Source of the DNA: an uncultured Candidatus Saccharibacteria bacterium
GTDB lineage: Bacteria; Patescibacteriota; Minisyncoccia; Phycocordibacterales; PALSA-1337
Direction of reading: 5' to 3'
Assembly (NCBI GenBank): GCA_964637485.1
Contig: CAZWUU010000001.1
Coordinates: forward strand, 1 to 46,451
Length of the DNA stretch: 46,451 nucleotides
This document shows positions 2,627-46,451 of the stretch, piece by piece. A program made the position numbers and the translations under genes. How positions within the stretch are numbered: position 1 is the stretch's first letter; the number at the start of each line of letters is the position of its first letter. The notes under the pieces were generated by a model that worked only from the letters and a program-made list of their open reading frames with translations, was not told the DNA's origin and did no database searches.

Positions 2627-3304
2627 TTATTGAGATATCTTGCGTATCATGTAGCCGCGTCCTGGCACGTTTATCACGTATTGAGTAAGGCCGGCTTTCG
2701 CGAGTTTATTTCTCAAATTTCTGATGTGTGCTTCGAGTGTGTTTGAAAATGGATTTATATCAGAATCCCATACATGCTCCATGATCTCTGGGCGTGTTAC
2801 TACAGAGCCGGCATGTCTCAGGAGGTATTCAAGCAGATTGAATTCCTTCTTTGTAAGCGGAATCAGAGTGTCGCCGTGAGTGACTTCGAATGTGCCGAGA
2901 TTTAACTTTAGTTGGCCGTTTTGCATAATCTCGGATTTTATATCAGGCGCTCTTCTCGATATTGCATCTATGCGAGTCTTCAGTTCATTGATAGAAAAAG
3001 GTTTAGTGATGTAGTCATCTGCGCCCGCGCGAAAGGCTTCGATCTTTGTGTCTGTATCCATGGTGTTTGATAAAAAAATAATAGGAGTGTTTTTTCCTAT
3101 TGCTCGGATTTCTCTGCAGACTGTAATGCCATCTTTCTTGGGAAGCGAGTAATCGAGGATTATGACATCGTAGTTATATGTTCGTGCCAGGAATGAGCCG
3201 TCTGCGCCGTCGTGAGCGACTTCTACCGTATGGGCAAATGCACCAAGATTTGATTTGACCGAGGAGGCTAGGTTGATGTCATCGTCAACAACCAGTGTTT
3301 TCAT
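2627..3304 (-). CDS. OmpR/PhoB-family response regulator (receiver plus winged-helix)
   Basis: MKTLVVDDD, DVIILDYSLPKKDG and KPF receiver motifs. C-terminal LTKKEFNLLEYL...VPGRGY winged helix. The start is moved to the internal ATG at 3304 on homology and promoter position. Confidence 0.9.
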   Translation of the reverse strand: MKTLVVDDDINLASSVKSNLGAFAHTVEVAHDGADGSFLARTYNYDVIILDYSLPKKDGITVCREIRAIGKNTPIIFLSNTMDTDTKIEAFRAGADDYITKPFSINELKTRIDAISRRAPDIKSEIMQNGQLKLNLGTFEVTHGDTLIPLTKKEFNLLEYLLRHAGSVVTRPEIMEHVWDSDINPFSNTLEAHIRNLRNKLAKAGLTQYVINVPGRGYMIRKISQ

Positions 3305-8450: not shown

Positions 8451-11400
8451 ATGCAAACAATCACAACAAAAAAAGCTACGGATCCTCAGCAATTCGATCT
8501 CGTAAAACTGTCGTTGGCGTCTCCTGAAAAGATTTTGGAATGGTCGTACGGTGAAGTCACGAAGCCAGAAACTATCAACTACAGAACACAGCGTTCAGAG
8601 AAGAGCGGTCTTTTCGATGAGAGAATATTCGGTCCAGATAGGGACTATGAGTGTTATTGCGGTAAATATCGCGGTATTCGTTATAAAGGTCTTGTATGCG
8701 AGAAGTGTGGAGTAGAAATCACTCGATCTATTGTTCGCAGAGAGAGAATGGGACACATAGAACTAGCATCTCCGGTTGCACATATCTGGTTTCTTAGATC
8801 AGTTCCATCACGTATAGGTCTCATACTCGGCATGACTACGTCAGATCTGGAAAAGGTCGTATATTTCGCTGGATACATTGTCACAAAAGTTCAGGAAGGG
8901 GAAAAGACAAAATTCCTAAAAGAGCTTGATGCGGAATATAAGAACAAGGTTAAGACCTCTCAAGACGATAAGACGAAAGAAGCGTTGAAGGAACTCATGC
9001 TCAATGCTCGTAGAGAGATCGAATCGATTGTTCCAGGCTTTGTCATGGATGAAGTTACATATCATAAGTACGCAGTGAAATACGGTGCATTTTTCGAAGC
9101 ATCCATAGGAGCCGAGGCCATATTCGATCTTCTTAAAAAGATTGATCTGGAAAAATTGAAAGTTGAATTGGACAAGGCCTATAGCGAGGCTGGTTCAGCA
9201 GACAGCGAAAAAATCTCAAAGAGATTGTCGCTGGTAAAGCAGATGATAAAGGCAAAAGTGAGACCAGAATGGATGTTCCTCATAAGAATACCAGTCATTC
9301 CTCCTGGCTTGCGTCCTATGGTTGCTCTCGACGGCGGTCGCTATGCGACATCAGATGTGAATGATTTGTACAGGCGCGTCATAAACCGCAATAATCGTCT
9401 ATTGAAACTGAAGGAGATCAACGCTCCGGAAGTCATCCTTCGCAATGAAAAAAGAATATTGCAGGAAGCAGTCGATGCTCTGGTAGATAACAGCATAAGA
9501 CACAGCTCATCTGCTGGTGCCGCTGCTCTCGCTCGGGAAAAGAGAGCTCTGAAATCATTGTCAGATTCTTTGAAATCAAAGAGAGGTCTCTTCAGACAAA
9601 ACCTGCTCGGTAAGCGCGTTGATTATTCAGGCCGATCAGTCATCGTCGTCGGACCAGAACTCAAGCTCAATGAATGCGGTCTGCCGAAGCATATGGCGCT
9701 CGAACTATTCAGACCTTTCGTTATTTCCGGATTGCTCAAGAGAGAATTGGCTTACAACATAAGAGGAGCAAATAGACTCATAGATGATGGTGCAAAGGAA
9801 GTATGGGAAATATTGGAGGAAGTCATAAAAGGCAAGTATGTGCTTCTAAACCGAGCACCTACACTTCACCGCCTAGGCATACAGGCATTTATGCCGGTGT
9901 TAATAGAAGGTAATGCTATCCAAGTCCACCCACTCGTATGTACCGCTTTTAACGCAGACTTCGATGGAGACCAGATGGCAGTGCATGTGCCACTTTCTGA
10001 AGAAGCACAAATGGAGGCAAAGGAAATAATGGCATCAGACAAAAATATTTTGAAGCCTGGTAACAATGATCCGACCGTTGCAGCGAAGATGCTAGACATA
10101 GTACTCGGCTGTTTCTGGGTCACAAAGATGGTTCCTGGCGCCAAGGGTGAGGGTAAAATATTCGAATCACCGGATTCAGCCATTCTGGCCAATTCATTCA
10201 AGGATGTGGATCTTCGCGCAAAGATAAAGGTTATGGCTCCTGAAAATGCAAAATACAAAGCGTTTTCTGGTAAGGTTTTCGAGACAACTGTAGGACGAAT
10301 ATTGTTCAATGACGTTCTGCCGGAAGATTATGCATTTATAAACGATGAAGTTGGCAGAAAAAAATTGTCTGCTATCGTCGATGACATGATCACCTTGTAT
10401 GGAGCTGACAACATTGCTCCGATATTGGATAGAGTGAAGACCTTCGGTTTCGGATATGCCACGTACTCTGGTACTACATGGGGCATAGACGATATCGTGA
10501 TACCGGAGTCAAAATATGAAATCATAAAACAAGCCAAGTCTAAGGCGGACACCGTATCCAATCAGTTTAATGAAGGCTTGCTGACTGAAGAAGAAAGGAT
10601 TAGGAAAAATGTCGAGATTTGGCAACATGCAAAGAGTGAAGTCGAGAAGTCTATACCTGCATCGCTAGATAAAATGGGATCTGTATACGACATGGTCACG
10701 TCAGGAGCCAGAGGATCTCTTTCTCAGATCACTATAATGGCTGGCATGAAGGGACTTATTGCATCAGTTTCCGGAGAGACTATCGAGTTCCCTGTATTGT
10801 CATGTGCAAAGGAAGGTCTGACTCCGATCGAATATTTCATCACCACGCACGGTTCAAGAAAAGGTCTAACAGATACAGCCCTAAACACTGCCAAGGCTGG
10901 TTATCTCACCAGAAAGCTATTCGTGGTTGCACAAGATGTTGTCGTTTCAGAGGATGATTGTGGAACAAAAGATTCTATAACCATACGCAAAACCACAGCT
11001 TCAGGTATGACTATCCCTCTATCAAAGAATATACGAGGAAGGATCATTGCTGACGATCTCATTGATGCTGACGGTAAAGTGCTGTTTAAGAAAGGCCATC
11101 TGCTATCTAAGAAGGATGCTCAAGCCGTAGAAGATGCAGGCATCGCTGAAGTCAAGGTCAGGTCACCTCTAGCATGTAAGACTGTCAGAGGAGTTTGTTC
11201 CAAGTGTTACGGATTGGATCTGGGTAGAAACAAGCTTGTCGGACTTGGAGAAGCGGTGGGTACGATAGCGGCACAAGCGATCGGCGAACCTGGAACTCAG
11301 CTCACCATGAGAACATTCCACGCCGGTGGTGCTGCGTCAGCAGGTGGAGATATCACTATGGGTCTCCCTCGTGTCGAAGAAGTCTTCGAAAAGAGAAGGC

Positions 11401-15826: not shown

Positions 15827-17321
15827 GGCCGTTAATCTTATCATACAAATGCTTCCAGATAGCATACATGGCATAGGTGTCCAATTCGCAGTACTTTTTT
15901 AGGTTTTCTTCAATTTCTTTTTTTACCTCTGCAGAAGTGTTTTCTTGTATCATTTCATTCCATTTCTGCGAAGCGGTCCCGCCCTCACGTATAGCCAACT
16001 TCTTATATGAAAGATTGGGTACTAGTACGGGAAGTACATCTTTTATGGATGTGCCACCTCTGAAATCTTTGTGTACATAGTATAGTTTTGTGAATACATC
16101 TCTCAGATCATATACTCGGGAATTAATGTCTTCTAGAAAGGCCTGATGGTCCGGGTGTCTTTTTGCGAGTTCTTTATTCCTCCCACATTCGAAAGGCTTA
16201 TACCAAACAATGACTGTTCCCGCATTGCCGATATGCTCTCTCATTTTAGCTAGAAAATGAGACCCCGGATCATCATTTCCAGTGTGTAGGAAATCGTAAT
16301 GTCGTGGAATGCTATCGGTCTCGTCCAATACATGTAGAGAATATTGGAAAGGTATATGAGTGTAAGGTGAATAGCCAGTGAATCTTGGTATGGCGCAAGC
16401 ATACGTCTCATAATCTAAGAAATAAATAGGGAAATGTATCTTATTTAGCTCATCTCTTATGTGATCTGTTCTTATGAGCGGTATCGGTCTTACTGATGCA
16501 TCTACCTGATGTCTCTGATTATCCGTTAATTCAAAATCCTCTGGGATCTCCTCAAGTTTGTATATATGAGAATCGATGAGTTCGGTGAGTTTCTTCTTAC
16601 CGATTCTGGTGATATCGTGAACTCCGTATTCCGGTATGCTGGGATTCGAATATGCAAAAGTGGTGCAGTGATTACTTCGTGTCTTGTAGAGACAACTGCA
16701 ACCGGCTTCATCATTATCCGTCGTAAGATATATCTTGGCTCGTTCCATTTCTGCTTCGATTTCTGGCATGATGGCGTTCACAGTCTCTTTGATGTCATCG
16801 ATTTTGAAGCACTGAGTAATATCCAATTCATTGCCACGAACATAATCAGAATTTAGGTACATTATGCATGTTTGTCCGACATTAATACCGAGTTTATTCA
16901 GAAGAATGACTTGAAATGCAAGATCGTGAGGGTGCCAGTCCTTCTTTATTTCACTAGATGCTTTGATCTCAATAACGTCGTAGCAAGAATTTTTCTCATC
17001 GTATTTCATCACGTCTATAGCCGCCATAAATCCCTGGGTTGAAAATACCGCTTGAAATATTGTCGGCTCATGAGATTTTATGAGCAATTGTGTTTGCTCT
17101 ATGCCATATTCGTCTCGATTTTCTATCAGCTTGCCAGTAGGAAAGAGTTTTCGAGCCTGATTCTCGACATCTATTCCATTGTCGATGATTGCCTTATCGA
17201 AATCACTCATCGGTTCGGCGTAAAAAATCTCTGGCCTGTGTTTTTTGAGCCAGGCATTTTTCGGACATTCCCGATACAGAAGAAAATCAGTTTTTGATAC
17301 TATTGGTGGTTGTGCCGACAT
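15819..17321 (-). CDS. DUF2779-family protein (N-terminal PD-(D/E)XK Cas4-like nuclease plus RNase H-like domain)
   Basis: SKTDFLLYRECPKNAWL N-terminus, D..EIK motif, Cys cluster GCSCLYKTRSNHC, and YFLDYETYACAIPRF...IPFQYSLH typical of DUF2779. Confidence 0.72.
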   Translation of the reverse strand: MSAQPPIVSKTDFLLYRECPKNAWLKKHRPEIFYAEPMSDFDKAIIDNGIDVENQARKLFPTGKLIENRDEYGIEQTQLLIKSHEPTIFQAVFSTQGFMAAIDVMKYDEKNSCYDVIEIKASSEIKKDWHPHDLAFQVILLNKLGINVGQTCIMYLNSDYVRGNELDITQCFKIDDIKETVNAIMPEIEAEMERAKIYLTTDNDEAGCSCLYKTRSNHCTTFAYSNPSIPEYGVHDITRIGKKKLTELIDSHIYKLEEIPEDFELTDNQRHQVDASVRPIPLIRTDHIRDELNKIHFPIYFLDYETYACAIPRFTGYSPYTHIPFQYSLHVLDETDSIPRHYDFLHTGNDDPGSHFLAKMREHIGNAGTVIVWYKPFECGRNKELAKRHPDHQAFLEDINSRVYDLRDVFTKLYYVHKDFRGGTSIKDVLPVLVPNLSYKKLAIREGGTASQKWNEMIQENTSAEVKKEIEENLKKYCELDTYAMYAIWKHLYDKINGHE

Positions 17322-18042
17322 TTAAGAGTGTATCTATCGTTGCCTTTAAGGTCCCGAATGTTTGAAGTCCTATTAGCGCTATCTGGCTGTTTGAGGGCGT
17401 GACAACGATGGTAAGTGGGGTTCCGTTGATCCCTAGATCCAGTGCTTCATCATATGCGCGCTCTATCCTATCTCTATATCTGCCTACAGACATGCATTCG
17501 TTGAAAGCTACGATATCCAATCCGATGTCTTTTGCTATTCCATCCAGAACTTTTCTATCTTCTTCCTTGGGTCTTGTCGCATCATTCTCATTAAAAAGAG
17601 AGAACCACTTCTTCTCGAAGTCAAAGAATGCTTTATTGCCCCCTAGTCCAGCCGCACATTCGAGGGCTTCTGCTTGCATGAGGGAATTGGGATGAGGAAC
17701 TGAGCCGTTTATGGGTCGAAAGAGCGGAAAATGTCTATAAACCCAGGCAACTTTTCCTTCAGGTCCGTATGTATCCATTATGGATACGAGGGTAGAATTA
17801 TAAACCTTGCAGAACGGACACGATAAATCAGAATACTCTATCAATTTAATGGGCGCATTCGGATTACCCAAAATATGATCATTTGCGGTGACGGCCGGCA
17901 CAAGCGGGCTCACATCAACCACGGATGGTTTGGAGTCTTTCTTTACGGGTTTATTTATGAGTATTATAGATACCGCTATTAATGCCCCTGCAATAATCAC
18001 GGCACTAGGAAGCGATAGAGCTCCGCGATGTTTGTTAATCAT
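17287..18042 (-). CDS. DsbA/thioredoxin-fold thiol:disulfide oxidoreductase, membrane-anchored
   Basis: CPFC active-site motif after an N-terminal TM helix (LPSAVIIAGALIAVSIILI). DsbA-like length. Confidence 0.75.
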   Translation of the reverse strand: MINKHRGALSLPSAVIIAGALIAVSIILINKPVKKDSKPSVVDVSPLVPAVTANDHILGNPNAPIKLIEYSDLSCPFCKVYNSTLVSIMDTYGPEGKVAWVYRHFPLFRPINGSVPHPNSLMQAEALECAAGLGGNKAFFDFEKKWFSLFNENDATRPKEEDRKVLDGIAKDIGLDIVAFNECMSVGRYRDRIERAYDEALDLGINGTPLTIVVTPSNSQIALIGLQTFGTLKATIDTLLNVGTTTNSIKN

Positions 18043-18637: not shown

Positions 18638-19963
18638 TTAGTTTATATTTAGATCCTTTACGGAATGCTCCTCGCCTGAAGCAAGATTCTTTATTTTCAG
18701 CTCGCCGGTTCTCACTTCATTTTCGCCGACTACTATGACCTTGGGTATTCCTTTCTTATCAGCATTGCTTATTTGATCCCCGACTCTCTTTCCGGACAGA
18801 TCGATTTCAACACGAAAATTCTTTGCGCGTAATTTCTGAGCCAAGTCGAATGAGTAAGGGTAGTGTTGTTCACCCATCACAACTATGGCTATGTCTGCAG
18901 AAGACTCGGATTTCGGTAGATTGCCATACGTCTCCATGAGATTTCTGGCAATAAGATCGCCGGCGCCAAAACCAACGGCGCTTATCCTGTCTCCGCCGAA
19001 GAGGGTGGTCAGTTCGTCATAGCGTCCGCCTCCGAATACAGAACGTCTATTTTCTGGGCTAAGATCGAAAATTTCAAAGACTGTGCCCGTGTAATAATCG
19101 AAACCTCTCATGAGAGTTTGGTCGAAACGAACATTGGTGATACCGAGCGATTCAAGATCTTTAATTATGTTTTTTATCTCTGACAATCCCTCATGTTCGA
19201 GCTTGTCTTGGGGAAGACAATTCGAAAACTCTGCAAAATTCTTAGAATTGAGCATCGTGACGAACAAATCAAACTTCTTCTCGAATTCTCCGACATTACC
19301 GATTTTCGGTCGTAAAATATCGATGAGCGATATTTTGAATAATTCTGCATCGAGCTTGTCCTTCTTGTCTATCAGTTTGGCGACATGGTGAGCCGTGTCA
19401 TCATCCAATGCGAAAATATCCTTTAATATATAATTAACGATTTTTCGGTTATTTATTCGTATTTCAAAATCAGAATCTTTGAGGCCGTATGCGCGGGTGA
19501 TGTCGTAGGCGATGTTTATTATTTCCACTTCAGCGACGGAGCTGTCTACTCCAAAAATATCGACATTTAACTGCCAATGTTCTCGTACACGTCCCCTCTG
19601 AGGCTGTTCATATCTAAAGAGGTTGGGTATCGAAAACCACCTGGCTGGGAAGACAATATCTCTTCTTCTTGCGGATATCATTCTGGCAAGGGTTGGTGTC
19701 ATTTCTGGACGTAAGGTCACTTCTCTCTCGCCTCGATCGATAAAAGTGTATGTTTGTTCATTGACGATTTCATCTCCAGTTTTTGCCTTATATAATTCAG
19801 ACGGCTCAAGCACTGAAGCTCCGTACTCCACATAGCCATATTTTTTCACCGTATTCTTCCAAATATTAAAAATCGCATTTTGCACCGACATATCGTCAGG
19901 ATAGAAATCTCGAACTCCCTTATATGGTTCCGTGCCCAGTTTCTTTGCCTTGTTGTCATTCAT
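18638..19963 (-). CDS. hisS: Histidine--tRNA ligase
   Basis: KGVRDFYPDD, LRPEMTP, RYEQPQRGRVREHWQLNVDIFG, GGGRYD and GFGAGD class II motifs. Confidence 0.95.
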   Translation of the reverse strand: MNDNKAKKLGTEPYKGVRDFYPDDMSVQNAIFNIWKNTVKKYGYVEYGASVLEPSELYKAKTGDEIVNEQTYTFIDRGEREVTLRPEMTPTLARMISARRRDIVFPARWFSIPNLFRYEQPQRGRVREHWQLNVDIFGVDSSVAEVEIINIAYDITRAYGLKDSDFEIRINNRKIVNYILKDIFALDDDTAHHVAKLIDKKDKLDAELFKISLIDILRPKIGNVGEFEKKFDLFVTMLNSKNFAEFSNCLPQDKLEHEGLSEIKNIIKDLESLGITNVRFDQTLMRGFDYYTGTVFEIFDLSPENRRSVFGGGRYDELTTLFGGDRISAVGFGAGDLIARNLMETYGNLPKSESSADIAIVVMGEQHYPYSFDLAQKLRAKNFRVEIDLSGKRVGDQISNADKKGIPKVIVVGENEVRTGELKIKNLASGEEHSVKDLNIN

Positions 19964-27289: not shown

Positions 27290-27539
27290 AGGATTCATAA
27301 TGATTTCGCTCGTTATTTCCATCAGTTCATTCTTGTTGATGATATCGAGTATGAATATGCTTTCAGCACTATATTACTCAGACATGGTCAATAGACAAGA
27401 GTTTCGAATTCAAAAGAAGTTTAATGTTGCCGTATGTGAACAGATCAAGGAAATACTATCGCAAAGAAAGGATGTGTATAAGAAAAGTGTGATTTATAAA
27501 GAAATTGATTGTCTTGTCGAGACAACTCAAAATATATGA
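27252..27539 (+). CDS. Pseudopilin-like small membrane protein lacking Glu+5
   Basis: ...SCEG|FIMISLVISISSFLLMISS hydrophobic N-terminus, with Ser at +5. It has an ATGA overlap with the next pilin gene. Confidence 0.45.
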   Translation: MKTKSTGDYLSCEGFIMISLVISISSFLLMISSMNMLSALYYSDMVNRQEFRIQKKFNVAVCEQIKEILSQRKDVYKKSVIYKEIDCLVETTQNI

Positions 27540-29748: not shown

Positions 29749-31653
29749 TTATATCTCCATCATTTTTAGGAGTTTTGCCAGCTTGATCGTAGCGACACCG
29801 ATCACATAATCAGCTGCACCGTAATACATATATACCGTACCTTTTCTGATGGTTAGTCCGCAGGGGAATACCACGTTCGGAACTACACCCTTATGTTCAT
29901 ATTCTTCTTGAGGTTCGAATAGGGGAATACCCGTCCTAGCCCTAACAATGGTTGGATCTTTTAGATCCAGTAACACCGCTCCGACTCGATAAGTAGTACT
30001 CCAAGATACCCCATGATACAAAAGTAGCCAGCCGTCCTTTGTTTTTACTGGCGGAGTTGAAATTCCGACTTTTCCGCCATCCCACATACCTTTTCTTGGA
30101 GAGATAATCTCAATACATTGAGTGACTCGCTCCTTCGAAAAATCCAGAGTTTTTACAAAATCAGCACATACGCTCTCGTGTACTCTGTGAAATACCATAT
30201 ACATGCCATTTACTTTTTCTGGCAGAATGGCAGCGTCTTTATCTGGAACGCCGTCCGGTGTTATAGCTTCAGGTTTTGACCATGCGCTCCATTTACGCGC
30301 GGTGAAGTCATTTACGCTGATTGATGAGACCGCAACTCTTGGTGTGGTCCCATTATATCCAGTGTATGTCATATATATGCGATCACCGATTCGCATAAAT
30401 CTAGGATCTTCAACACCGTAATTATCGCCACCGCCATCCTTCAATTCGAATTTTTCTCTGGCGAAATATACGGGTTTGTCAGATCTGTAATCTATAGAAA
30501 ATCCGTCGCATGATTCTGCATATCCGAATGTAGAAATATTACCCTTTGCTACCGCTCGATAGAAAATACATGTCTTTCCATCTATGTCTATAGAAGCAGG
30601 ATTGATTGTGCCATCCTGTTCCCATAAGACACCCGGTCGAGGAGCGATGATAGGATTACCTGGAAATCTGACCAAAGACTTTTTCTCTTCAGTTCCGATG
30701 CTGTGGAGTAGGCTATCTAGAGGAATAGTAGCCATGGCTACATGAGTGTCAGTTGCACCGTAATAGACTTCCAGATTTCTACCATTTATGAGAGCACCGC
30801 TTGGAAATATGGTATGCGGCACTTGTCCCACATGCTCGTAATACATTTCTGGCACCATAAATGGACCCTTGGTTCTGCCTATGATACGTCTCGGATTCTC
30901 CAAATCTAGTAAAAGAACTTCTACTCCGAAGACATGATCCGGACGTCCGTATCTCTGAATATGGCAATAAACAACAACCCATCCCTTAGAAGTTTTGACC
31001 GGAGGAGCACCTAATTCGAGATGGTCATCTGGGAGCCTTCTGATGTGCAGTTTGTGAGCATCGACATTCGACAGCCAATCCTTCCAATAATTTGCTGACC
31101 ACATGTCTTCCGGTTTATCGAATTCAGCATAACAAATATCGGATGGCTTTCTGTCCGTGTTTATAGTAACGAGTGTGGCGTATTTTCCGTCAATTTTTTC
31201 TGGAAACATTGCCATTCCTTTTGCATTGAATGGCGTGACTAGGTGCTTGCTTTCGATACTCTTCAAATCTTTAGAAACAGCGACTGCAACTTTTATGTTG
31301 TCTGCTCCGTAAGGAAAACCACCGAGAGCTGTATAAAAAATGTAGTATTTTCCACCGACTTTGGACACGCGAGGATCCTCACAGCCGTAACGATCAAAGT
31401 CAGAATCAGGCAAGATGAGCATTTCTCTGTCCTCAAACTTTATGCCGTCCTTGGAAACCGCTCTGGCTATAACAGACGTCGATGGGTGGTCCGGCTTCAA
31501 TAGATCTGGCTCAGACATGGCTCGATAGAGCATGGTCATCTCCTTTTTTCCGGTCATGATAGGGCAGCCGTTAAATGCCGCTGCCGCTTCCCAAGGATGT
31601 TCTTTTACTGGCGAAATCAGCGGATTGAACTCCGATCGTGTGACTGTAAACAT
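29749..31653 (-). CDS. Tandem double-domain GH130 (former DUF377) glycoside phosphorylase/hydrolase
   Basis: Two copies of the GH130 pattern. Copy 1 has NPLISP...AAFNG...YRAMS...CEDPRVSKVGGKYYIFYTA...MFPEKIDGKY. Copy 2 has NPIIAP...TINPASI...YRAV...VEDPRFMRIGDRIYMTYTG...ILPEKVNGMY. Confidence 0.8.
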   Translation of the reverse strand: MFTVTRSEFNPLISPVKEHPWEAAAAFNGCPIMTGKKEMTMLYRAMSEPDLLKPDHPSTSVIARAVSKDGIKFEDREMLILPDSDFDRYGCEDPRVSKVGGKYYIFYTALGGFPYGADNIKVAVAVSKDLKSIESKHLVTPFNAKGMAMFPEKIDGKYATLVTINTDRKPSDICYAEFDKPEDMWSANYWKDWLSNVDAHKLHIRRLPDDHLELGAPPVKTSKGWVVVYCHIQRYGRPDHVFGVEVLLLDLENPRRIIGRTKGPFMVPEMYYEHVGQVPHTIFPSGALINGRNLEVYYGATDTHVAMATIPLDSLLHSIGTEEKKSLVRFPGNPIIAPRPGVLWEQDGTINPASIDIDGKTCIFYRAVAKGNISTFGYAESCDGFSIDYRSDKPVYFAREKFELKDGGGDNYGVEDPRFMRIGDRIYMTYTGYNGTTPRVAVSSISVNDFTARKWSAWSKPEAITPDGVPDKDAAILPEKVNGMYMVFHRVHESVCADFVKTLDFSKERVTQCIEIISPRKGMWDGGKVGISTPPVKTKDGWLLLYHGVSWSTTYRVGAVLLDLKDPTIVRARTGIPLFEPQEEYEHKGVVPNVVFPCGLTIRKGTVYMYYGAADYVIGVATIKLAKLLKMMEI

Positions 31654-31658
31654 GATTT

Positions 31659-32807
31659 TTAATTCTTATTAACGTTGCCGTATTCCACCAACCATTGAAG
31701 CAACGGTTCTAGGGGAGTTTTGGCTATGCAGGTGTGTTTGTCTCCACCTCCATAATAAACTAATAAATTATCATCTTTGATGACGGCACCGGACGCATAT
31801 ACCACTCCAGGCTTGCCGTCATTCTCATAATGCATGTCCGGTGACAAAATGGGTTCAGGGGAGCGGTACAGTATTCTTGTCGGATCATTCAAATCCAATA
31901 TCATTGCACCGACTTTATAACCAACCACATTGTTCGGGTTTCTGGTGTCTATGGCGTGATATAGGAGTAACCAACCCAAGCGAGTTCTAAGAGGTGGAGC
32001 TCCTGCTCCGCGAACTCGTTCATCCCAGTAACCAATTCTGGACTTGTCCTTATATCCTCCGCCCCCATGATCTCCGAGACTTTCAATCTTGGGCGCCATC
32101 TCCGGAGAATCGACATAAGCGACAAGAATTCTCGGTGCAATTCCATGCAAAATGGCATACTTTCCGTTAATTTTTTCTGGAAAGAGGACCCAATTCTTCG
32201 CACGAGACTTTGCCGGGGATATGAGGACTGGCCTTCTCCATTTCCATTTTCTAACCTTGAGATCGTTTTCGAGAATTGAAGTGACACCTATGCGCATATT
32301 AGCCCATCCTCCGAACGCGGTGTATGTCATATATATGCGGTCGCCGATTTTTACGACTCTTGGATCTTCAGTACCGCCCCAACCACCGCCCGATTCATAA
32401 GCAGATCGGTCGAATTTTTTCGGCCCTGTTGCATCCTCAGGTTCAGGTATTCCTAATCCTGGTTCAGGGCTGAAAACGGGGTACATAGATCTTTCCACGA
32501 AGTATAATCCGTCATCTGAAACCGCATGACCGACTCTAGATAATCCGTCGCTCCCTATGGCTCTATAGAAAAGATGAACTCGTCCTTCGTTGTCCATGAC
32601 TGCACCTGGATTAAATGCTCCTTCAGTCTCCCAATAATTATGATTTTGTGGCGAGAGAATAGGATTATTAGAATGTCTGGCTAAGTCGTATCTCTTTCTG
32701 TAGACGATTTTTACGCTAAATCTGATGAGAGCATAGGCGCAGACGATAAAAACTATTATTGCCGCGGCCAATGTAAGAGTTGATATGATAGCTGAAATAT
32801 TCATCAA
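31659..32807 (-). CDS. Membrane-tethered single-domain GH130 family protein
   Basis: An N-terminal TM helix is followed by a basic stretch (RFSVKIVYRKRY). NPILSP...GAFNPGAV...YRAIG...TEDPRVVKIGDRIYMTYTA...LFPEKINGKY. Confidence 0.8.
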   Translation of the reverse strand: MMNISAIISTLTLAAAIIVFIVCAYALIRFSVKIVYRKRYDLARHSNNPILSPQNHNYWETEGAFNPGAVMDNEGRVHLFYRAIGSDGLSRVGHAVSDDGLYFVERSMYPVFSPEPGLGIPEPEDATGPKKFDRSAYESGGGWGGTEDPRVVKIGDRIYMTYTAFGGWANMRIGVTSILENDLKVRKWKWRRPVLISPAKSRAKNWVLFPEKINGKYAILHGIAPRILVAYVDSPEMAPKIESLGDHGGGGYKDKSRIGYWDERVRGAGAPPLRTRLGWLLLYHAIDTRNPNNVVGYKVGAMILDLNDPTRILYRSPEPILSPDMHYENDGKPGVVYASGAVIKDDNLLVYYGGGDKHTCIAKTPLEPLLQWLVEYGNVNKN

Positions 32808-33182
32808 TTACTTATTTTCGGCAGTCCTGCCGTATTTATCCTCAAGTCTCACAATATCCTTTTCATCGAAATCTCCGTAAGCCAGTTCGACGAATACTAG
32901 AATATTTTTACCTCCAATAACGCGATGATTAATTCTTCGAGGTATATAACATACACTTCCTTTTGTAAGTGGGATTTTTTCATCACCGATGACAGCTACT
33001 CCATCGCCAGAAACAATGAACCAATGTTCATCTCTCTCATTGTGATATTGAAGACTGAGTGCTTCCCCTGGGTTTACAGAAATAATTTTAGCCATGCCCG
33101 GAATATTTACTCCGTCCATGAGCCATAATTCCTCACCCCAAGGCCGAATATCTTTGTAAGTCTTGGGCGCAACCATGTACAT
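32808..33182 (-). CDS. Cupin-type mannose-6-phosphate isomerase (type II PMI C-terminal-domain-like)
   Basis: RPWGEELWL...SLQYHNERDEHWFIVSGDG...IPRRINHRV cupin motifs. The true start may be ATG 33176, which lies 8 nt after the -10 element. Confidence 0.72.
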   Translation of the reverse strand: MYMVAPKTYKDIRPWGEELWLMDGVNIPGMAKIISVNPGEALSLQYHNERDEHWFIVSGDGVAVIGDEKIPLTKGSVCYIPRRINHRVIGGKNILVFVELAYGDFDEKDIVRLEDKYGRTAENK

Positions 33183-34006: not shown

Positions 34007-34061
34007 CTCCGTGGAACGTCGATTGACCTGCTAATGTCTTATTGAGGCCACGGCGGGAATC
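34007..34061. repeat. Direct repeat copy 1 (54/55 identical to 34181-34235): orphan copy of the tRNA-Cys 3' end plus downstream flank
   Basis: ctccgtggaacgtcgattgacctgctaatGtcttattgaggccacggcgggaatc, with one mismatch at 34036 versus 34210. Offset is 174 bp. Confidence 0.9.
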
Positions 34062-34180: not shown

Positions 34181-34235
34181 CTCCGTGGAACGTCGATTGA
34201 CCTGCTAATTTCTTATTGAGGCCACGGCGGGAATC
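34181..34235. repeat. Direct repeat copy 2, covering tRNA-Cys T-loop to 3' end (17 nt) plus 38 nt downstream
   Basis: Same 55-mer as 34007-34061. It overlaps tRNA-Cys positions 34219-34235. Confidence 0.9.
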
Positions 34236-34290
34236 GAACCCGCGCATAGCGGTTTTGCAGACCGCTGAATTACCACTTTTCTACGTGGCC
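34219..34290 (-). tRNA. tRNA-Cys (GCA)
   Basis: Hand-folded cloverleaf: acceptor GGCCACG/CGUGGCC, anticodon arm GCGGU-CUGCAAA-ACCGC, T arm GCGGG-UUCGAUU-CCCGC, discriminator U73. CCA is not encoded. Confidence 0.9.
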
Positions 34291-34301: not shown

Positions 34302-34628
34302 CTACATTGTTTTTGAGATGTCGTCTAATCTCTGACGATTCTTTTCTCCTTTATCGATTTCTGCCTCGAAAAAGGGGATGCGCATAATTCTGGAATTTTC
34401 AGTTACATACTTTCGAAGATCTGAGAGGTTTCTGTTTACGAACGCGAGAGCCGTCTCTTCCTGTGATTCGGGCATGACTGTAAACAATATTTTTGCTCGA
34501 GCGCCTCGCGAGAGTATTTCAATATTTGTGATAGTAATAAGAGATTGTCCGTTTGTCTCACGGGCAAAATATTTTGCCGACAATTCTCTTATTATTTCCT
34601 TCAATTTTGAATCTTTGATTTCACTCAT
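34302..34628 (-). CDS. rbfA: Ribosome-binding factor A
   Basis: Size, its position immediately after infB (ATGA overlap) and an RbfA-like KH fold sequence (ITITNIEILSRGARAKILF). Confidence 0.82.
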   Translation of the reverse strand: MSEIKDSKLKEIIRELSAKYFARETNGQSLITITNIEILSRGARAKILFTVMPESQEETALAFVNRNLSDLRKYVTENSRIMRIPFFEAEIDKGEKNRQRLDDISKTM

Positions 34629-36163
34629 ATATTTTTCTCTACCATTCTAAATGCCTCTATCTTGTCGCCGGCAGCGATTTCTGTTTTGGATTCGATCATT
34701 GTGCCAAATTCGTAGCCCTCTCTGATTTCACTGACGCGCTTCTTCTGTTGCTGAAGTTCTCTTAGAAGTCCTTCGCCGATTTTCGCATCTCTTCTCAATA
34801 TTCTTACATTCATGCCTGTCTCTATGAAGCCTTCTTGTACCTTGCCGCCTACGACTTGCTTATCTTTCTCTTTCGAGAAAACTGCCATCACTTTTGCTCG
34901 GCCTATGATTTGTTCGACGTACTCTTTCGGTACGAGTTTCAATAATTCTTCCTCAATGTGCTGTATCAGCTCGTATATTATGCGAAATGTCTTAATCTGC
35001 AATGGGACAGGTGATCGCTCTATGATAGCCGATGCCTTGGTGTCAGGTGTGACATTGAAACCGAAGAGACGTATGTTCGGATCCGATACCAGAAGTTTTA
35101 CATCGTTTTCTCCTATATCTCCTATTCCTTCAGAAACTATCTCGAGCTCAACTTTTTCGTGTTTTATTTTTGCTAGTTCGTGCCTTATGCCGTCGAGTGA
35201 TCCGATAACGTCCGCTTTTATTACTATTGGCAAAGAAACCTTCGCAGACTCTGCGTCACCCTTTGATTTTTTTGGCACACGCTCGGACATTTTCATTTTC
35301 GCATTTGAGGCATTCTTATCGCAGATTTGTTCTGCTTCTTTTTTCGATGAGACAGTGATAAATCTGCTACCGCATGGAGGAATTTCGTTCCAGCCGACTA
35401 TGACGACCGGCATCGACGCTTTTGCGGTTTCTATCTTCTTATTTGCGAAGTTCTCTATATATCTTACTGGCGCAAAAGCGCTACCTGCGACGACGAATGA
35501 GCCTTTGGAAAGACTTCCGTCCTTGATGAGTAGGGTAGCCGTTATACCCTTTTTCGTATCCATTTCTGATTCTATCACCACACCCTCGGCTGGCTTTGAC
35601 GTGCAGGTATTCAAATCGGACATTTCTCCTAAAAGCACGATCATGTCTAATAGATCGTTTACGCCCTTGCCGGTCAAGGCCGAAATAGAAACACAGGGTA
35701 TATCTCCGCCCCAACCTTCCACATATATTTCGTTCTCACCTAAAGATTGCTTGGTCCTATTTTCATCTGCATTTGGCTTGTCGATTTTGTTGATCGCGAC
35801 TATATAGGGAATTTTCGCTTCTTTGATCGATTTGTATGCTTCCATTGTTTGTGGCTTGACGCCATCTTCGGCGGATACAACCAAGATTGCAATATCGGCG
35901 GCCAAGGCACCCCTCTCTCTGATAGAGCAGAAGGCCTGATGCCCCGGAGTGTCCAAAAAAGTAAATGTGTGTTTCGTGCCATCGGCACTTACGTATTCTG
36001 CCTCGTAAGCCCCGACGTGTTGGGTGATGCCCCCGGCTTCATTTGCGACTACATTTGATTTACGTATGAAATCAAGCAGAGTAGATTTGCCATGATCTAT
36101 ATGCCCCATTACAACAATAACAGGGGATCGGCGAACCAGGTTTTGCTGGTCTTTTGTAGGCAT
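34625..36163 (-). CDS. infB: Translation initiation factor IF-2 (short form lacking the N-terminal region)
   Basis: VVMGHIDHGKSTLLD, DTPGHQAF and NKIDK G-domain motifs, with C-terminal IF-2 domains. Confidence 0.95.
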   Translation of the reverse strand: MPTKDQQNLVRRSPVIVVMGHIDHGKSTLLDFIRKSNVVANEAGGITQHVGAYEAEYVSADGTKHTFTFLDTPGHQAFCSIRERGALAADIAILVVSAEDGVKPQTMEAYKSIKEAKIPYIVAINKIDKPNADENRTKQSLGENEIYVEGWGGDIPCVSISALTGKGVNDLLDMIVLLGEMSDLNTCTSKPAEGVVIESEMDTKKGITATLLIKDGSLSKGSFVVAGSAFAPVRYIENFANKKIETAKASMPVVIVGWNEIPPCGSRFITVSSKKEAEQICDKNASNAKMKMSERVPKKSKGDAESAKVSLPIVIKADVIGSLDGIRHELAKIKHEKVELEIVSEGIGDIGENDVKLLVSDPNIRLFGFNVTPDTKASAIIERSPVPLQIKTFRIIYELIQHIEEELLKLVPKEYVEQIIGRAKVMAVFSKEKDKQVVGGKVQEGFIETGMNVRILRRDAKIGEGLLRELQQQKKRVSEIREGYEFGTMIESKTEIAAGDKIEAFRMVEKNI

Positions 36164-39083: not shown

Positions 39084-39155
39084 TTTCACATGATTTCGCC
39101 TATTACTCTCTGGTTGCATAAAAACCAAGGTAACAAACAAGAAAATAATAAAACC

Positions 39156-43375: not shown

Positions 43376-45552
<2,177 letters not shown>

Positions 45553-45555
45553 TAT

Positions 45556-45585
45556 TTGACACATGACATACAAATGTTTTATAGT
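45556..45585 (+). promoter_or_regulatory. Near-consensus sigma70 promoter for the GC-rich terminal ORF
   Basis: TTGACA-18 nt-TATAGT, about 130 nt upstream of ATG 45724. Confidence 0.55.
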
Positions 45586-45723
45586 CTGTGAGGAAACGCA
45601 GATGAATGCATATTTATAGCCACAGCAGAGAATGATGAGATTTTCGTAAAGATCGATTGTTTTCTGCTATGGCGATAAGGTAGCCCTCTAGCTCATACAT
45701 AAACTCATACGAAAGGACTGACC

Positions 45724-46451
45724 ATGGATCAAAATACCATGCTCGGCAAGATTATTCGGATGGTTGTGACTATGTCGAGTGATACTCTCGGTATGGTCGT
45801 CGACCTCCTCGAAAAGGTGAATGGAAACGATAAGGCTAGCTGGGTATCTGAATTGAAGATGTTTCTCCGCAAGGAACCCTGTTGGAGTAACGGACAGGTC
45901 GCACAAGTGGCGGAACCGAAACCCACACCCTCGATCCTAGAGCTCGTCTCGACGGTCGTGGTCCCCGCAACCACCGGCAAGTTTGTCGCGAAGACCGCGT
46001 TCGTGGTCAACACCAAGCGCAATGCGAAGGTGTTGATCTCGGCAGTCTGGGACAACTTCGCCAGGTGGTTCCTGTCGGGTGACGGCAAGACCGAAGATCC
46101 TGAGAGCGAACAGACGCTCCGCTACCACAAATTGCGGAAGTCTTCAGGTGATGGTCCCATCATCGAGGATCTCGGTGGCGAAGCGAAAGCTGAAACCACC
46201 TTGTCGGAGATGTTCTCCCTCATGGAGAAGCAGAAGAATGGTGAAGACGGTGTTCTCTTGAATAACGGCTACGCCAACATCTTCTACGTTCGGGACCAGA
46301 ATGGTGTGCTGCGCGCGGTCTACGTGGGCTGGTTCGACGACGGTTGGCGCGTCGATGCGGTCTCCGTCGAGGATCCGAGCAGGTGGTTCGATGGCAGCCA
46401 GGTGTTCTCTCGCAATTCTGTTCTCGGATCCTCGGAAACTTCGGCTCCGGC
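45724..46451 (+). CDS. Open-ended GC-rich ORF of unknown function (3' end beyond the window; absent from the ORF track)
   Basis: Manual translation from ATG 45724 runs 242 codons to the window edge without a stop (MDQNTMLGKIIRMVV...NGYANIFYVRDQNGVLRAVYVGWFDDGWRVDAVSVEDPSRWFDGSQVFSRN...). There is an in-frame TAA at 45700-45702 upstream. AAAGGA lies 6 nt before the ATG. Confidence 0.7.
   Translation, partial: MDQNTMLGKIIRMVVTMSSDTLGMVVDLLEKVNGNDKASWVSELKMFLRKEPCWSNGQVAQVAEPKPTPSILELVSTVVVPATTGKFVAKTAFVVNTKRNAKVLISAVWDNFARWFLSGDGKTEDPESEQTLRYHKLRKSSGDGPIIEDLGGEAKAETTLSEMFSLMEKQKNGEDGVLLNNGYANIFYVRDQNGVLRAVYVGWFDDGWRVDAVSVEDPSRWFDGSQVFSRNSVLGSSETSAP

Follow-up and report, generated by a model that had tools for sequence, protein, structure and literature searches.

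A GC-rich open reading frame at the end of a Saccharibacteria contig is very probably an orphan target gene of a diversity-generating retroelement

How does a GC-rich gene with a promoter, a leader and a Shine-Dalgarno (SD) sequence of its own come to lie next to gyrB, at the very end of a contig of much lower G+C content? The question is raised by contig CAZWUU010000001.1 (assembly GCA_964637485.1) of an uncultured Candidatus Saccharibacteria bacterium, of which we analysed positions 1 to 46,451, hereafter the window. A preliminary description, made from the letters alone, had noticed an open reading frame (ORF) there that it could not assign to any family, and had offered two explanations, the first gene of a horizontally acquired island or a chimeric assembly junction. 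We argue here for another answer: the ORF is very probably the variable-protein gene, or target, of a diversity-generating retroelement (DGR) of the type found in Patescibacteria (the candidate phyla radiation, CPR), present as an orphan single-gene cassette without a retroelement nearby.

The GC-rich ORF and the signals around it are a real feature of the sequence. On recount, the G+C content per 60 nt was exactly as first reported (38 at 45961-46020, 27 at 45001-45060 and 21 at 27301-27360), and the ORF, the promoter, a five-codon upstream ORF encoding MNAYL* (45602-45619), the two arms of a leader hairpin (45620-45632 with 45660-45672) and an AAAGGA box 6 nt 5' of ATG 45724 were all found again. 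The sharp compositional rise is equally real, with a GC of 0.58 over the final 578 nt of the window against a mean of 0.425 (sd 0.028, maximum 0.528) for 578-nt stretches elsewhere, but it had been misplaced when it was put right after gyrB. GC is still at the level of the host in the leader (0.38) and over the initial 150 nt of the reading frame (0.45), and values of 0.58-0.60 begin only at about 45842-45875, within the frame.

The product had been called unassignable, and this holds insofar as searches of Pfam, PHROGs and PDB sequences with the single protein found no relative, and searches with a diverse family profile gave nothing usable and no Pfam match to FGE-sulfatase or C-type lectin (CLec) domains. 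What had been overlooked is that its C-terminal block, VLRAVYVGWFDDGWRVDAVSVEDPSRWFDGSQVFSRN, is the variable region of a DGR target. Homologues are abundant: a word-index search returned 927, nearly all of 233-245 aa, and an exhaustive profile search places the family at 3169 clusters at 50% identity. The few homologues from named organisms are all from Patescibacteria, and the hosts of complete cassettes are metagenome-assembled genomes (MAGs) of Patescibacteria. Since nearly all relatives fall in so narrow a length range, the window ORF must be essentially complete, and not a fragment of something long. The closest homologue, in locus L004, has its stop codon, TAG, exactly at the position of the window edge, while that of L013 runs on as ...APAPTSLSATMA*; judging from these, the window ORF probably continues for 3-12 codons beyond the edge and would be about 245 aa long. 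The family has a divergent fringe. A search seeded with the distant member L085 retrieved only itself, a profile of divergent members largely found the main clade again, and members such as L085 and L037 appear undiversified or decayed. The N-terminal module is interchangeable within the family: that of the window has 33-50% nucleotide identity to L001, a locus with a complete cassette, and other members have unrelated ones. We also noted a protein of 926 aa (P0141) that carries five tandem copies of the C-terminal module.

It is the relatives that reveal the retroelement. In the family alignment an invariant C-terminal frame, V.V.W...GW.V.A.SV..P..W..G.QVFSRN, is broken by hypervariable columns. 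In L001 the 114-nt variable region (VR, 8555-8668) recurs as a template repeat (TR) at 9031-9144 with 15 differences, all at TR adenines, and a reverse transcriptase (RT) gene matching RVT_1 follows downstream of the TR. Pooled over ten cassettes, 177 of 181 TR-VR mismatches fall at TR adenines. The TR generally lies some 470 nt downstream of the VR. The interval from there to the RT holds a conserved minus-strand ORF, about 120 codons long, with matches to Avd, the accessory protein of DGRs (NF033474, E 7e-17; PF22296, bAvd, 46 bits against a cutoff of 40). Because of this adenine-specific pattern and the presence of Avd, we rejected a retron or group II intron identity for the L001 RT. The TR contains ten AAY codons and seven codons with a single A, so that, by our own arithmetic, it could encode variants on the order of 10^12-10^15. 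TRs agree at 97-100% of positions even where the RTs of the cassettes share only 62-64% identity, and the frequency of third-position A within the VR is 0.004 family-wide. One further protein, P0106 (293 aa), has Asn at all variable columns, like the TR; either its VR is still identical to a TR or the gene call runs across a TR.

Hairpins recur at these loci. Relatives, L004 among them, have a conserved GC-rich hairpin of the GGTCTGC-TTCG-GCAGACC type about 75-190 nt 3' of the VR, followed in L004 by a T-run; its role may be in homing or in termination. A separate hairpin stands directly 3' of the TR in L001 (9145-9185), and likewise in L002, L011, L020, L036, L042, L054 and L061. Its stem varies among cassettes yet stays complementary, and a U-run follows, as in CTCCTCGGC-TTAA-GGTCGGGGAG-TTTTT; termination is one possible function, a structural role within the TR RNA another. 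In L001, the stretch that separates the target from the TR contains (at 8820-8931) a sub-threshold match to the Rfam motif RT-9 (33.5 bits against a gathering threshold of 46.1, E 0.004), and none of the RT motifs matched in nine other loci of the family at Rfam gathering thresholds.

The window copy appears to bear the imprint of the same process. Its VR, the last 38 codons of the C-terminal domain, which are the part rewritten in DGRs, aligns with the TR of L001 without gaps at 82% identity, and TR adenines account for 16 of the 20 mismatches. All ten AAY (Asn) codons of the TR are substituted (Y200, G202, F204, R209, D211, V213, D217, S219, F222 and S225), and the hypervariable codons matched to AAY stand in an invariant scaffold of A-poor codons. 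The VR ends in a sequence resembling the initiation of mutagenic homing (IMH) element of known DGRs, and identical in 16 of the 19 VR 3' ends displayed, cassette-linked ones among them. The C that distinguishes this end from its TR counterpart (IMH*), which has A, is present in 18 of 19 VRs, with the A in 10 of 10 TRs displayed. The VR was recognised through homology to a heterologous consensus TR rather than through a cognate pair: across the 46-kb window there is no TR copy, RT or Avd gene, hence no complete cassette, and the 3.3 kb downstream within L004 contain no TR, avd or RT either. Comparison with L004 gives signs of activity. Both VRs have G at repeat position 10, and TR adenines take up roughly 29 positions of the VR. 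The two VRs differ at 14 of 114 positions (12.3%) against 3.4% in the preceding 1983 nt (binomial p 3e-5), and 11 of these 14 differences are at TR-adenine sites (Fisher p 1e-5).

Table 1. Features of the putative target cassette at the end of the window (positions in the window).
Feature	Position	Strand	Remarks
Sigma-70-type promoter TTGACA-18-TATAGT	45556..45585	+	11 of 12 consensus positions in the scan; left edge of the cassette
5' leader, about 130 nt	45586..45723	+	GC 0.38; contains the upstream ORF 45602-45619
Leader hairpin	45616..45677	+	19-bp imperfect stem, conserved 2x2 internal loop, variable apex
SD and start AAAGGA-CTGACC-ATG	45712..45726	+	Family motif AAGGA(N0-4)CTGACCATG
Putative DGR variable-protein (target) gene	45724..46451	+	242 codons, open at the window edge; has homologues; core dN/dS about 0.3
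N-terminal module, predicted three helices, ends FLRKEPCW	45724..45873	+	GC host-like (0.45); lineage-specific, interchangeable within the family
Conserved C-terminal alpha/beta module (predicted)	45842..46451	+	GC 0.58, GC at third codon positions (GC3) about 0.7; source of the GC jump
VR	46302..46415	+	aa 194-231
IMH-like 3' end of the VR, CCAGGTGTTCTCTCGCAA	46398..46415	+	C where all TRs have A (TCTCGAAA)

How such a gene would be diversified can be pictured from its relatives. The TR would be transcribed, and a complex of Avd and RT, encoded after it, would copy it into cDNA with misincorporation opposite template adenines; the cDNA would then replace the VR, in a direction presumably set by the GC-rich 3' homology block, since this block differs from the TR by one fixed base. 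The orphan unit is compact, with a promoter, structured leader and SD sequence of its own and a terminator that we deduce from L004, the window ending short of it. As TR, avd and RT are all missing nearby, any diversification of the window copy would have to depend on a cassette at some other place in the genome, acting in trans.

Being an orphan is nothing unusual in this target family. We took a census of 80 loci, all in species-representative genomes. In 27 of them an RT follows the target at no more than 2.5 kb, and these are full cassettes (TR, avd and RT); 26 have no RT despite at least 3 kb of sequence on each side, and the others are cut by contig ends. Orphans make up about half of the loci. 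That an orphan can be served from a distance is shown by the MAG SO_2017_LW1_33, provided that its binning is right. Here the TR of the L054 cassette bears a private variant, GCCCTG, and the orphan VR of L017, on another contig (10531-10644), carries this same GCCCTG while differing from the L054 TR at 19 A sites and a single further position, as expected if it was templated in trans.

A structure was also predicted for the protein. From 141 input sequences (an earlier alignment of 26 gave a pLDDT of 41), the best AlphaFold2 (AF2) model has a pLDDT of 83.8, exceeding 87 over aa 70-232, and the remaining four models reach 48-70. In the best model, helices at 3-16, 19-32 and 37-48 and a disordered linker (aa 56-65) precede an alpha/beta C-terminal domain of about 165 aa, with the VR on its last strands. 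When this model was compared with PDB and BFVD by Foldseek, the top matches, and the only long ones of low root-mean-square deviation (rmsd), were C-type lectin domains (E 0.2-0.9, probability up to 0.51): 3whd (128 columns, rmsd 4.7), the C-type lectin-like domain (CTLD) of DEC205 and a herpesvirus C-type lectin, with a TM-score of 0.38. These matches are not significant, but would be compatible with a divergent CLec fold. The predicted placement of the VR on C-terminal strands is shared with the C-type lectin variable proteins Mtd, TvpA, AvpA and TaqVP, but none of the structurally characterised DGR variable proteins appeared among the Foldseek matches. The target protein sequence contains neither a signal peptide nor a membrane segment.

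The composition of the gene, which first drew attention to it, turns out to belong to the family. Across 69 fetched loci, the window included and a few fetched twice, target genes have a GC of 0.54+-0.05 and a GC3 of 0.67 while the GC of their flanks ranges from 0.34 to 0.575 (regression slope 0.21). In 25 cassettes where both could be compared, the GC of the RT follows the flanks (r 0.83, slope 0.79) and that of the target does not (r 0.22). Since target GC is constant across hosts, the GC spike is a property of the family and not a peculiarity of the window. The position of the step has its own explanation. Compared with L001, from a genome of 34% GC, the window has 33-50% nucleotide identity up to 45841 and 80-93% from 45842 on (core synonymous divergence, dS, 0.27); the left boundary of an exchanged module therefore lies at the GC jump. 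Such an exchange can be seen directly between L001 and L022. They share a block of 94-100% identity (L001 8226-9324) that starts near codon 75 of the target, takes in VR and TR and reaches the 3' half of avd; upstream of this block they are unalignable or 33-38% identical, and in the RT region beyond it they have 52-73% identity. Their RTs are 62% identical overall, their target N-termini are unrelated, and one recombination breakpoint lies inside avd. The C-terminal module and the TR are thus exchanged between genomes as a block, and this accounts for part of the GC jump. At a finer scale, differences between the window and L004 cluster in short patches, at 45870-45915 in the linker and at 46101-46104 ('PES' in the window, 'PIS' in L004); the variants of both are each found in other family members, which suggests patchy gene conversion.

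A GC break less than 600 nt from a contig end would naturally raise the fear of a join between a genome of 42% GC and a GC-richer one, all the more so as many family members sit on short contigs and the gene tends to break assemblies. Such a chimera is, in our view, practically negligible as an explanation. L004 (Joint Genome Institute, JGI, 3300027924) and L005 encode products 93% identical to that of the window, and L004 remains collinear with the latter from a point within gyrB to the final base of the window, showing 83 mismatches over 2133 ungapped nt (96% identity), so the junction between gyrB and the ORF, present in two JGI contigs, has been assembled independently. Moreover, the break falls within an uninterrupted ORF, hundreds of homologues combine its two halves in the same way, and the GC-rich module contrasts with its flanks in the 69 fetched loci. 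A sharp break at a contig end could also be the beginning of a larger acquired island that extends past the window, and elsewhere family members do occur among defence and mobile genes (restriction-modification, HigB, serine recombinase). We hold this to be very unlikely, since beyond the ORF L004 goes straight on to hsp20 (minus strand), prsW (minus strand) and a penicillin-binding protein (PBP) gene, all of host composition. Many relatives keep this order of genes next to gyrB. We fetched 80 metagenomic loci with a gyrB closely related to that of the window (74-86% aa identity); in 43 of them gyrB is followed by a convergent hsp20 homologue, in some only 3-29 nt from the gyrB stop, and in 38 prsW is convergently downstream. 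None of these 80 neighbourhoods contains a gene of the target family. Together with the collinearity of L004, this means that the lineage of the window and L004 carries a single-gene insertion, flanked by syntenic DNA of host GC and not part of any multi-gene foreign block. Judged from the sequences, the inserted cassette measures about 1.16 kb and sits between convergent gyrB and hsp20. On the left it starts with the -35 box, separated by 3 nt from the stop codon of gyrB; on the right, in L004, it ends after a long hairpin and then a T-run. The suggestion that the segment is a lineage-specific acquisition, with promoter, leader and SD of its own, is therefore borne out, even if both of the explanations that came with it fail.

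More serious are two alternatives that accept the family and question its present workings, and several points do weigh against the reading we prefer. The window copy lacks TR, avd and RT over 45.7 kb upstream and, in L004, 3.3 kb downstream. Its VR has four non-adenine mismatches to the commonest TR, against one in L004, and at nine adenine sites it shares the very same substitution with L004, interleaved with sites that differ, so that no clean replacement tract appears; shared changes and extra non-adenine ones are unexpected after fresh, full retrohoming. The CLec fold, too, is not confirmed: the best matches have E 0.2-0.5, and only one AF2 model of five is confident. The gene might then be a fossil, a target whose retroelement was lost or never arrived and whose VR is left to ordinary mutation and selection, as the undiversified or decayed members illustrate. 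We rate this as possible but unlikely: the IMH is the same as in most cassette-linked VRs displayed, the VR diverges 3.6-fold faster than its flanks and does so at TR-adenine sites, third-position A has not entered it, and another genome offers an example of an orphan with its template in trans. For the window copy itself, we lean slightly towards diversification in trans at the present day. The other alternative concerns composition. Selection at the nucleotide level, for instance against A within and near the templated region or for an RNA structure, could keep GC high without lateral exchange. This would suit the scarcity of third-position A (A3), which drops from 0.13 in the untemplated core to 0.004 in the VR, and the near identity of TRs served by divergent RTs. 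It would also suit a GC3 of about 0.67 that persists between members at synonymous saturation: the median synonymous difference in the family is 0.65, so recent transfer alone is insufficient. On the other hand, third-position T is low in the core as well (0.18), so adenine avoidance cannot be the whole cause; block exchange is directly seen in L001 and L022; and the divergent members L018, L030, L056, L064 and L082 have drifted to a GC of 0.42-0.47. We are doubtful that such selection replaces exchange as the cause.

Whatever the origin of its composition, the putative target gene arrives with a conserved regulatory region. Upstream regions in the family share a promoter at fixed distance, a short conserved stretch, a hairpin and a start context; TTGACA...TATAAT recurs at equal distance upstream of members elsewhere, with no homology 5' of the -35 box. 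The upstream ORF, which is not conserved in relatives, is probably due to chance. The 13-bp hairpin of the preliminary description is the lower stem of a longer one of 19 bp, and this is a well supported case of a conserved, covarying RNA structure. Over 29 copies, 96.7% of the cells form pairs, and 12 of the 19 pairs have changed on both sides. Compensatory cells number 96, whereas shuffled alignments give 27.9+-5.3, and partners slid by 1-3 columns pair in only 31-50%. A covariance model (R1) scores 44.4 bits at the window leader (E 5e-8), whose single-sequence fold has a z of -2.06. The model matches 50-110 nt upstream of targets in about 33 distinct loci, including members with unrelated N-termini that took no part in model building. 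In a control scan of 0.74 Mb of DNA from gyrB neighbourhoods it matched in one place only (the same in L124 and L125), and Rfam 15 gave no match at E<=1 in 45400-46451 and none to the leader of L001. The single control match is curious in itself: the hairpin (L125 4588-4640, minus strand; L124 1935-1987) precedes an ORF of 142 aa (4514-4086, minus strand) that is divergent from gyrB and has the same layout of promoter and leader, no Pfam match, and no more than a slight local similarity to the target family (hhalign probability 4.5%). An integron attC-like hairpin was considered and set aside, there being no R-box consensus and no integrase, and the hairpin lying inside the cassette and not at its edge. 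Because two positions are mostly G-U and the sense strand always scores higher, in the window as elsewhere, we favour RNA over attC. Candidate roles are mRNA stability, a protein-binding site or translational control. Sequestration of the SD by a CCUCC box in the leader was dropped, this box not being conserved across leader types.

The start context AAGGA(N0-4)CTGACCATG is found in 28 fetched loci, of which about 24 are distinct. In the window the duplex of the SD with the anti-SD has an energy of -5.3 kcal/mol, against about 0 to -4 for most resident genes. The scarcity of SD sequences in the rest of the window had been correctly perceived, for most resident genes have none, but this is not the only SD-like sequence: AGGAG, AAGG and GGAG precede the genes at 39090, 12185 and 28992. 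Among the genes without an SD, those at 17287-18042(-), 18638-19963(-), 32808-33182(-), 34625-36163(-), 37108 and 40316 have a TATAAT-like box 6-12 nt before the ATG, such as tatataattagcatATG, gatataatttATG and gctatatttagcccATG, which suggests that leaderless mRNAs are widespread in this genome. Three other observations concern sites and repeats. In relatives (L087-L166; for example L095, L102 and L099) the spacer that separates gyrB from the convergent hsp20 can be as short as 3 nt or as long as about 1.3 kb, and this site may accept other small insertions as well. A 55-nt direct repeat (34007-34061 and 34181-34235, 98% identical, 174 nt apart) overlaps with its second copy the 3' end of a tRNA-Cys gene (34218-34290, minus strand), in the pattern of an att duplication or the remnant of an integrated element. 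Another, of 57 nt (30362-30418 and 32320-32376, 81% identical), lies within the minus-strand ORFs 29749-31653 and 31659-32807, which are probably tandem paralogues.

Much of what we describe has a counterpart in known DGRs. The relatives resemble the CPR DGRs (Wu et al., 2018, PMC5758913; clade 2 of Roux et al., 2021, PMC8144416) in having a target with its VR, a TR, an avd on the reverse strand, an RT and adenine-specific mismatches, and in a target without recognisable domain or membrane segment, as in both surveys. In the CPR set of the former, 90% of DGRs have the TR-(avd)-RT layout (B3), CPR DGRs tend to have one target while remote targets cluster elsewhere in the RT tree, and whole DGRs have atypical GC (PMC5758913). 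CPR targets without recognisable domains, for which a divergent CLec fold was anticipated, and remote targets that the survey method could not detect are described in the latter (PMC8144416). The window copy departs from these in having no adjoining TR, avd or RT, a condition shared by the 26 orphans of the family against its 27 cassettes. With the DGRs of Bordetella phage BPP-1 (mtd-avd-TR-brt), Treponema denticola and Legionella, the family has in common a VR at the C-terminal end of about 110-130 nt, a TR with AAY codons, a GC-rich IMH, the IMH/IMH* difference and an Avd partner; it differs in lacking detectable similarity to Mtd or TvpA, in an avd on the opposite strand between TR and RT, and in a target of about 240 aa without signal peptide that is, as far as visible, not borne by a phage. 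Several remote targets depending on one TR are known in Treponema (as cited in PMC5758913). The structured RNA motifs RT-1 to RT-19, which occur beside the RT genes of bacteria, may belong to DGRs or retrons (Weinberg et al., 2017, PMC5737381), but our leader hairpin is at the 5' end of the target mRNA and not beside the RT. We found no prior report of this hairpin, nor of the difference in GC between target and RT, in a literature search whose scope did not extend to Paul et al. (2017), the main paper on CPR DGRs. As DGR targets are already known, the category itself is unchanged; what deserves following up is the frequency of orphans, the decoupling of GC with block exchange, and the covarying hairpin. 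Tentatively, these could be combined into a wider proposal: that self-contained, portable target cassettes, each with its promoter, a dedicated structured leader RNA, the ORF and a terminator, disperse through Patescibacteria genomes independently of the RT and are served in trans by one TR-avd-RT unit per genome, that the C-terminal module and the TR are swapped as a block, and that the leader hairpin represents a new class of cis-regulatory RNA for the expression of hypervariable proteins. We put this forward as a conjecture that is more likely to fail in some part than to stand whole.

An unexplained 'foreign' ORF at the end of a contig thus becomes a recognisable element, and the concern about misassembly is removed. 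At the level of the family, three leads emerge: target GC is decoupled from the host while RT GC tracks it, the C-terminal module and the TR are exchanged as a block, and the leader contains a covarying hairpin. A very large unannotated family, for which there is no Pfam model, can be understood as a DGR target family of Patescibacteria, about half of whose loci are without an adjacent RT. Surveys anchored on the RT miss remote targets by design, so the hypervariation driven by DGRs in the small genomes of Patescibacteria may be wider than current catalogues suggest.

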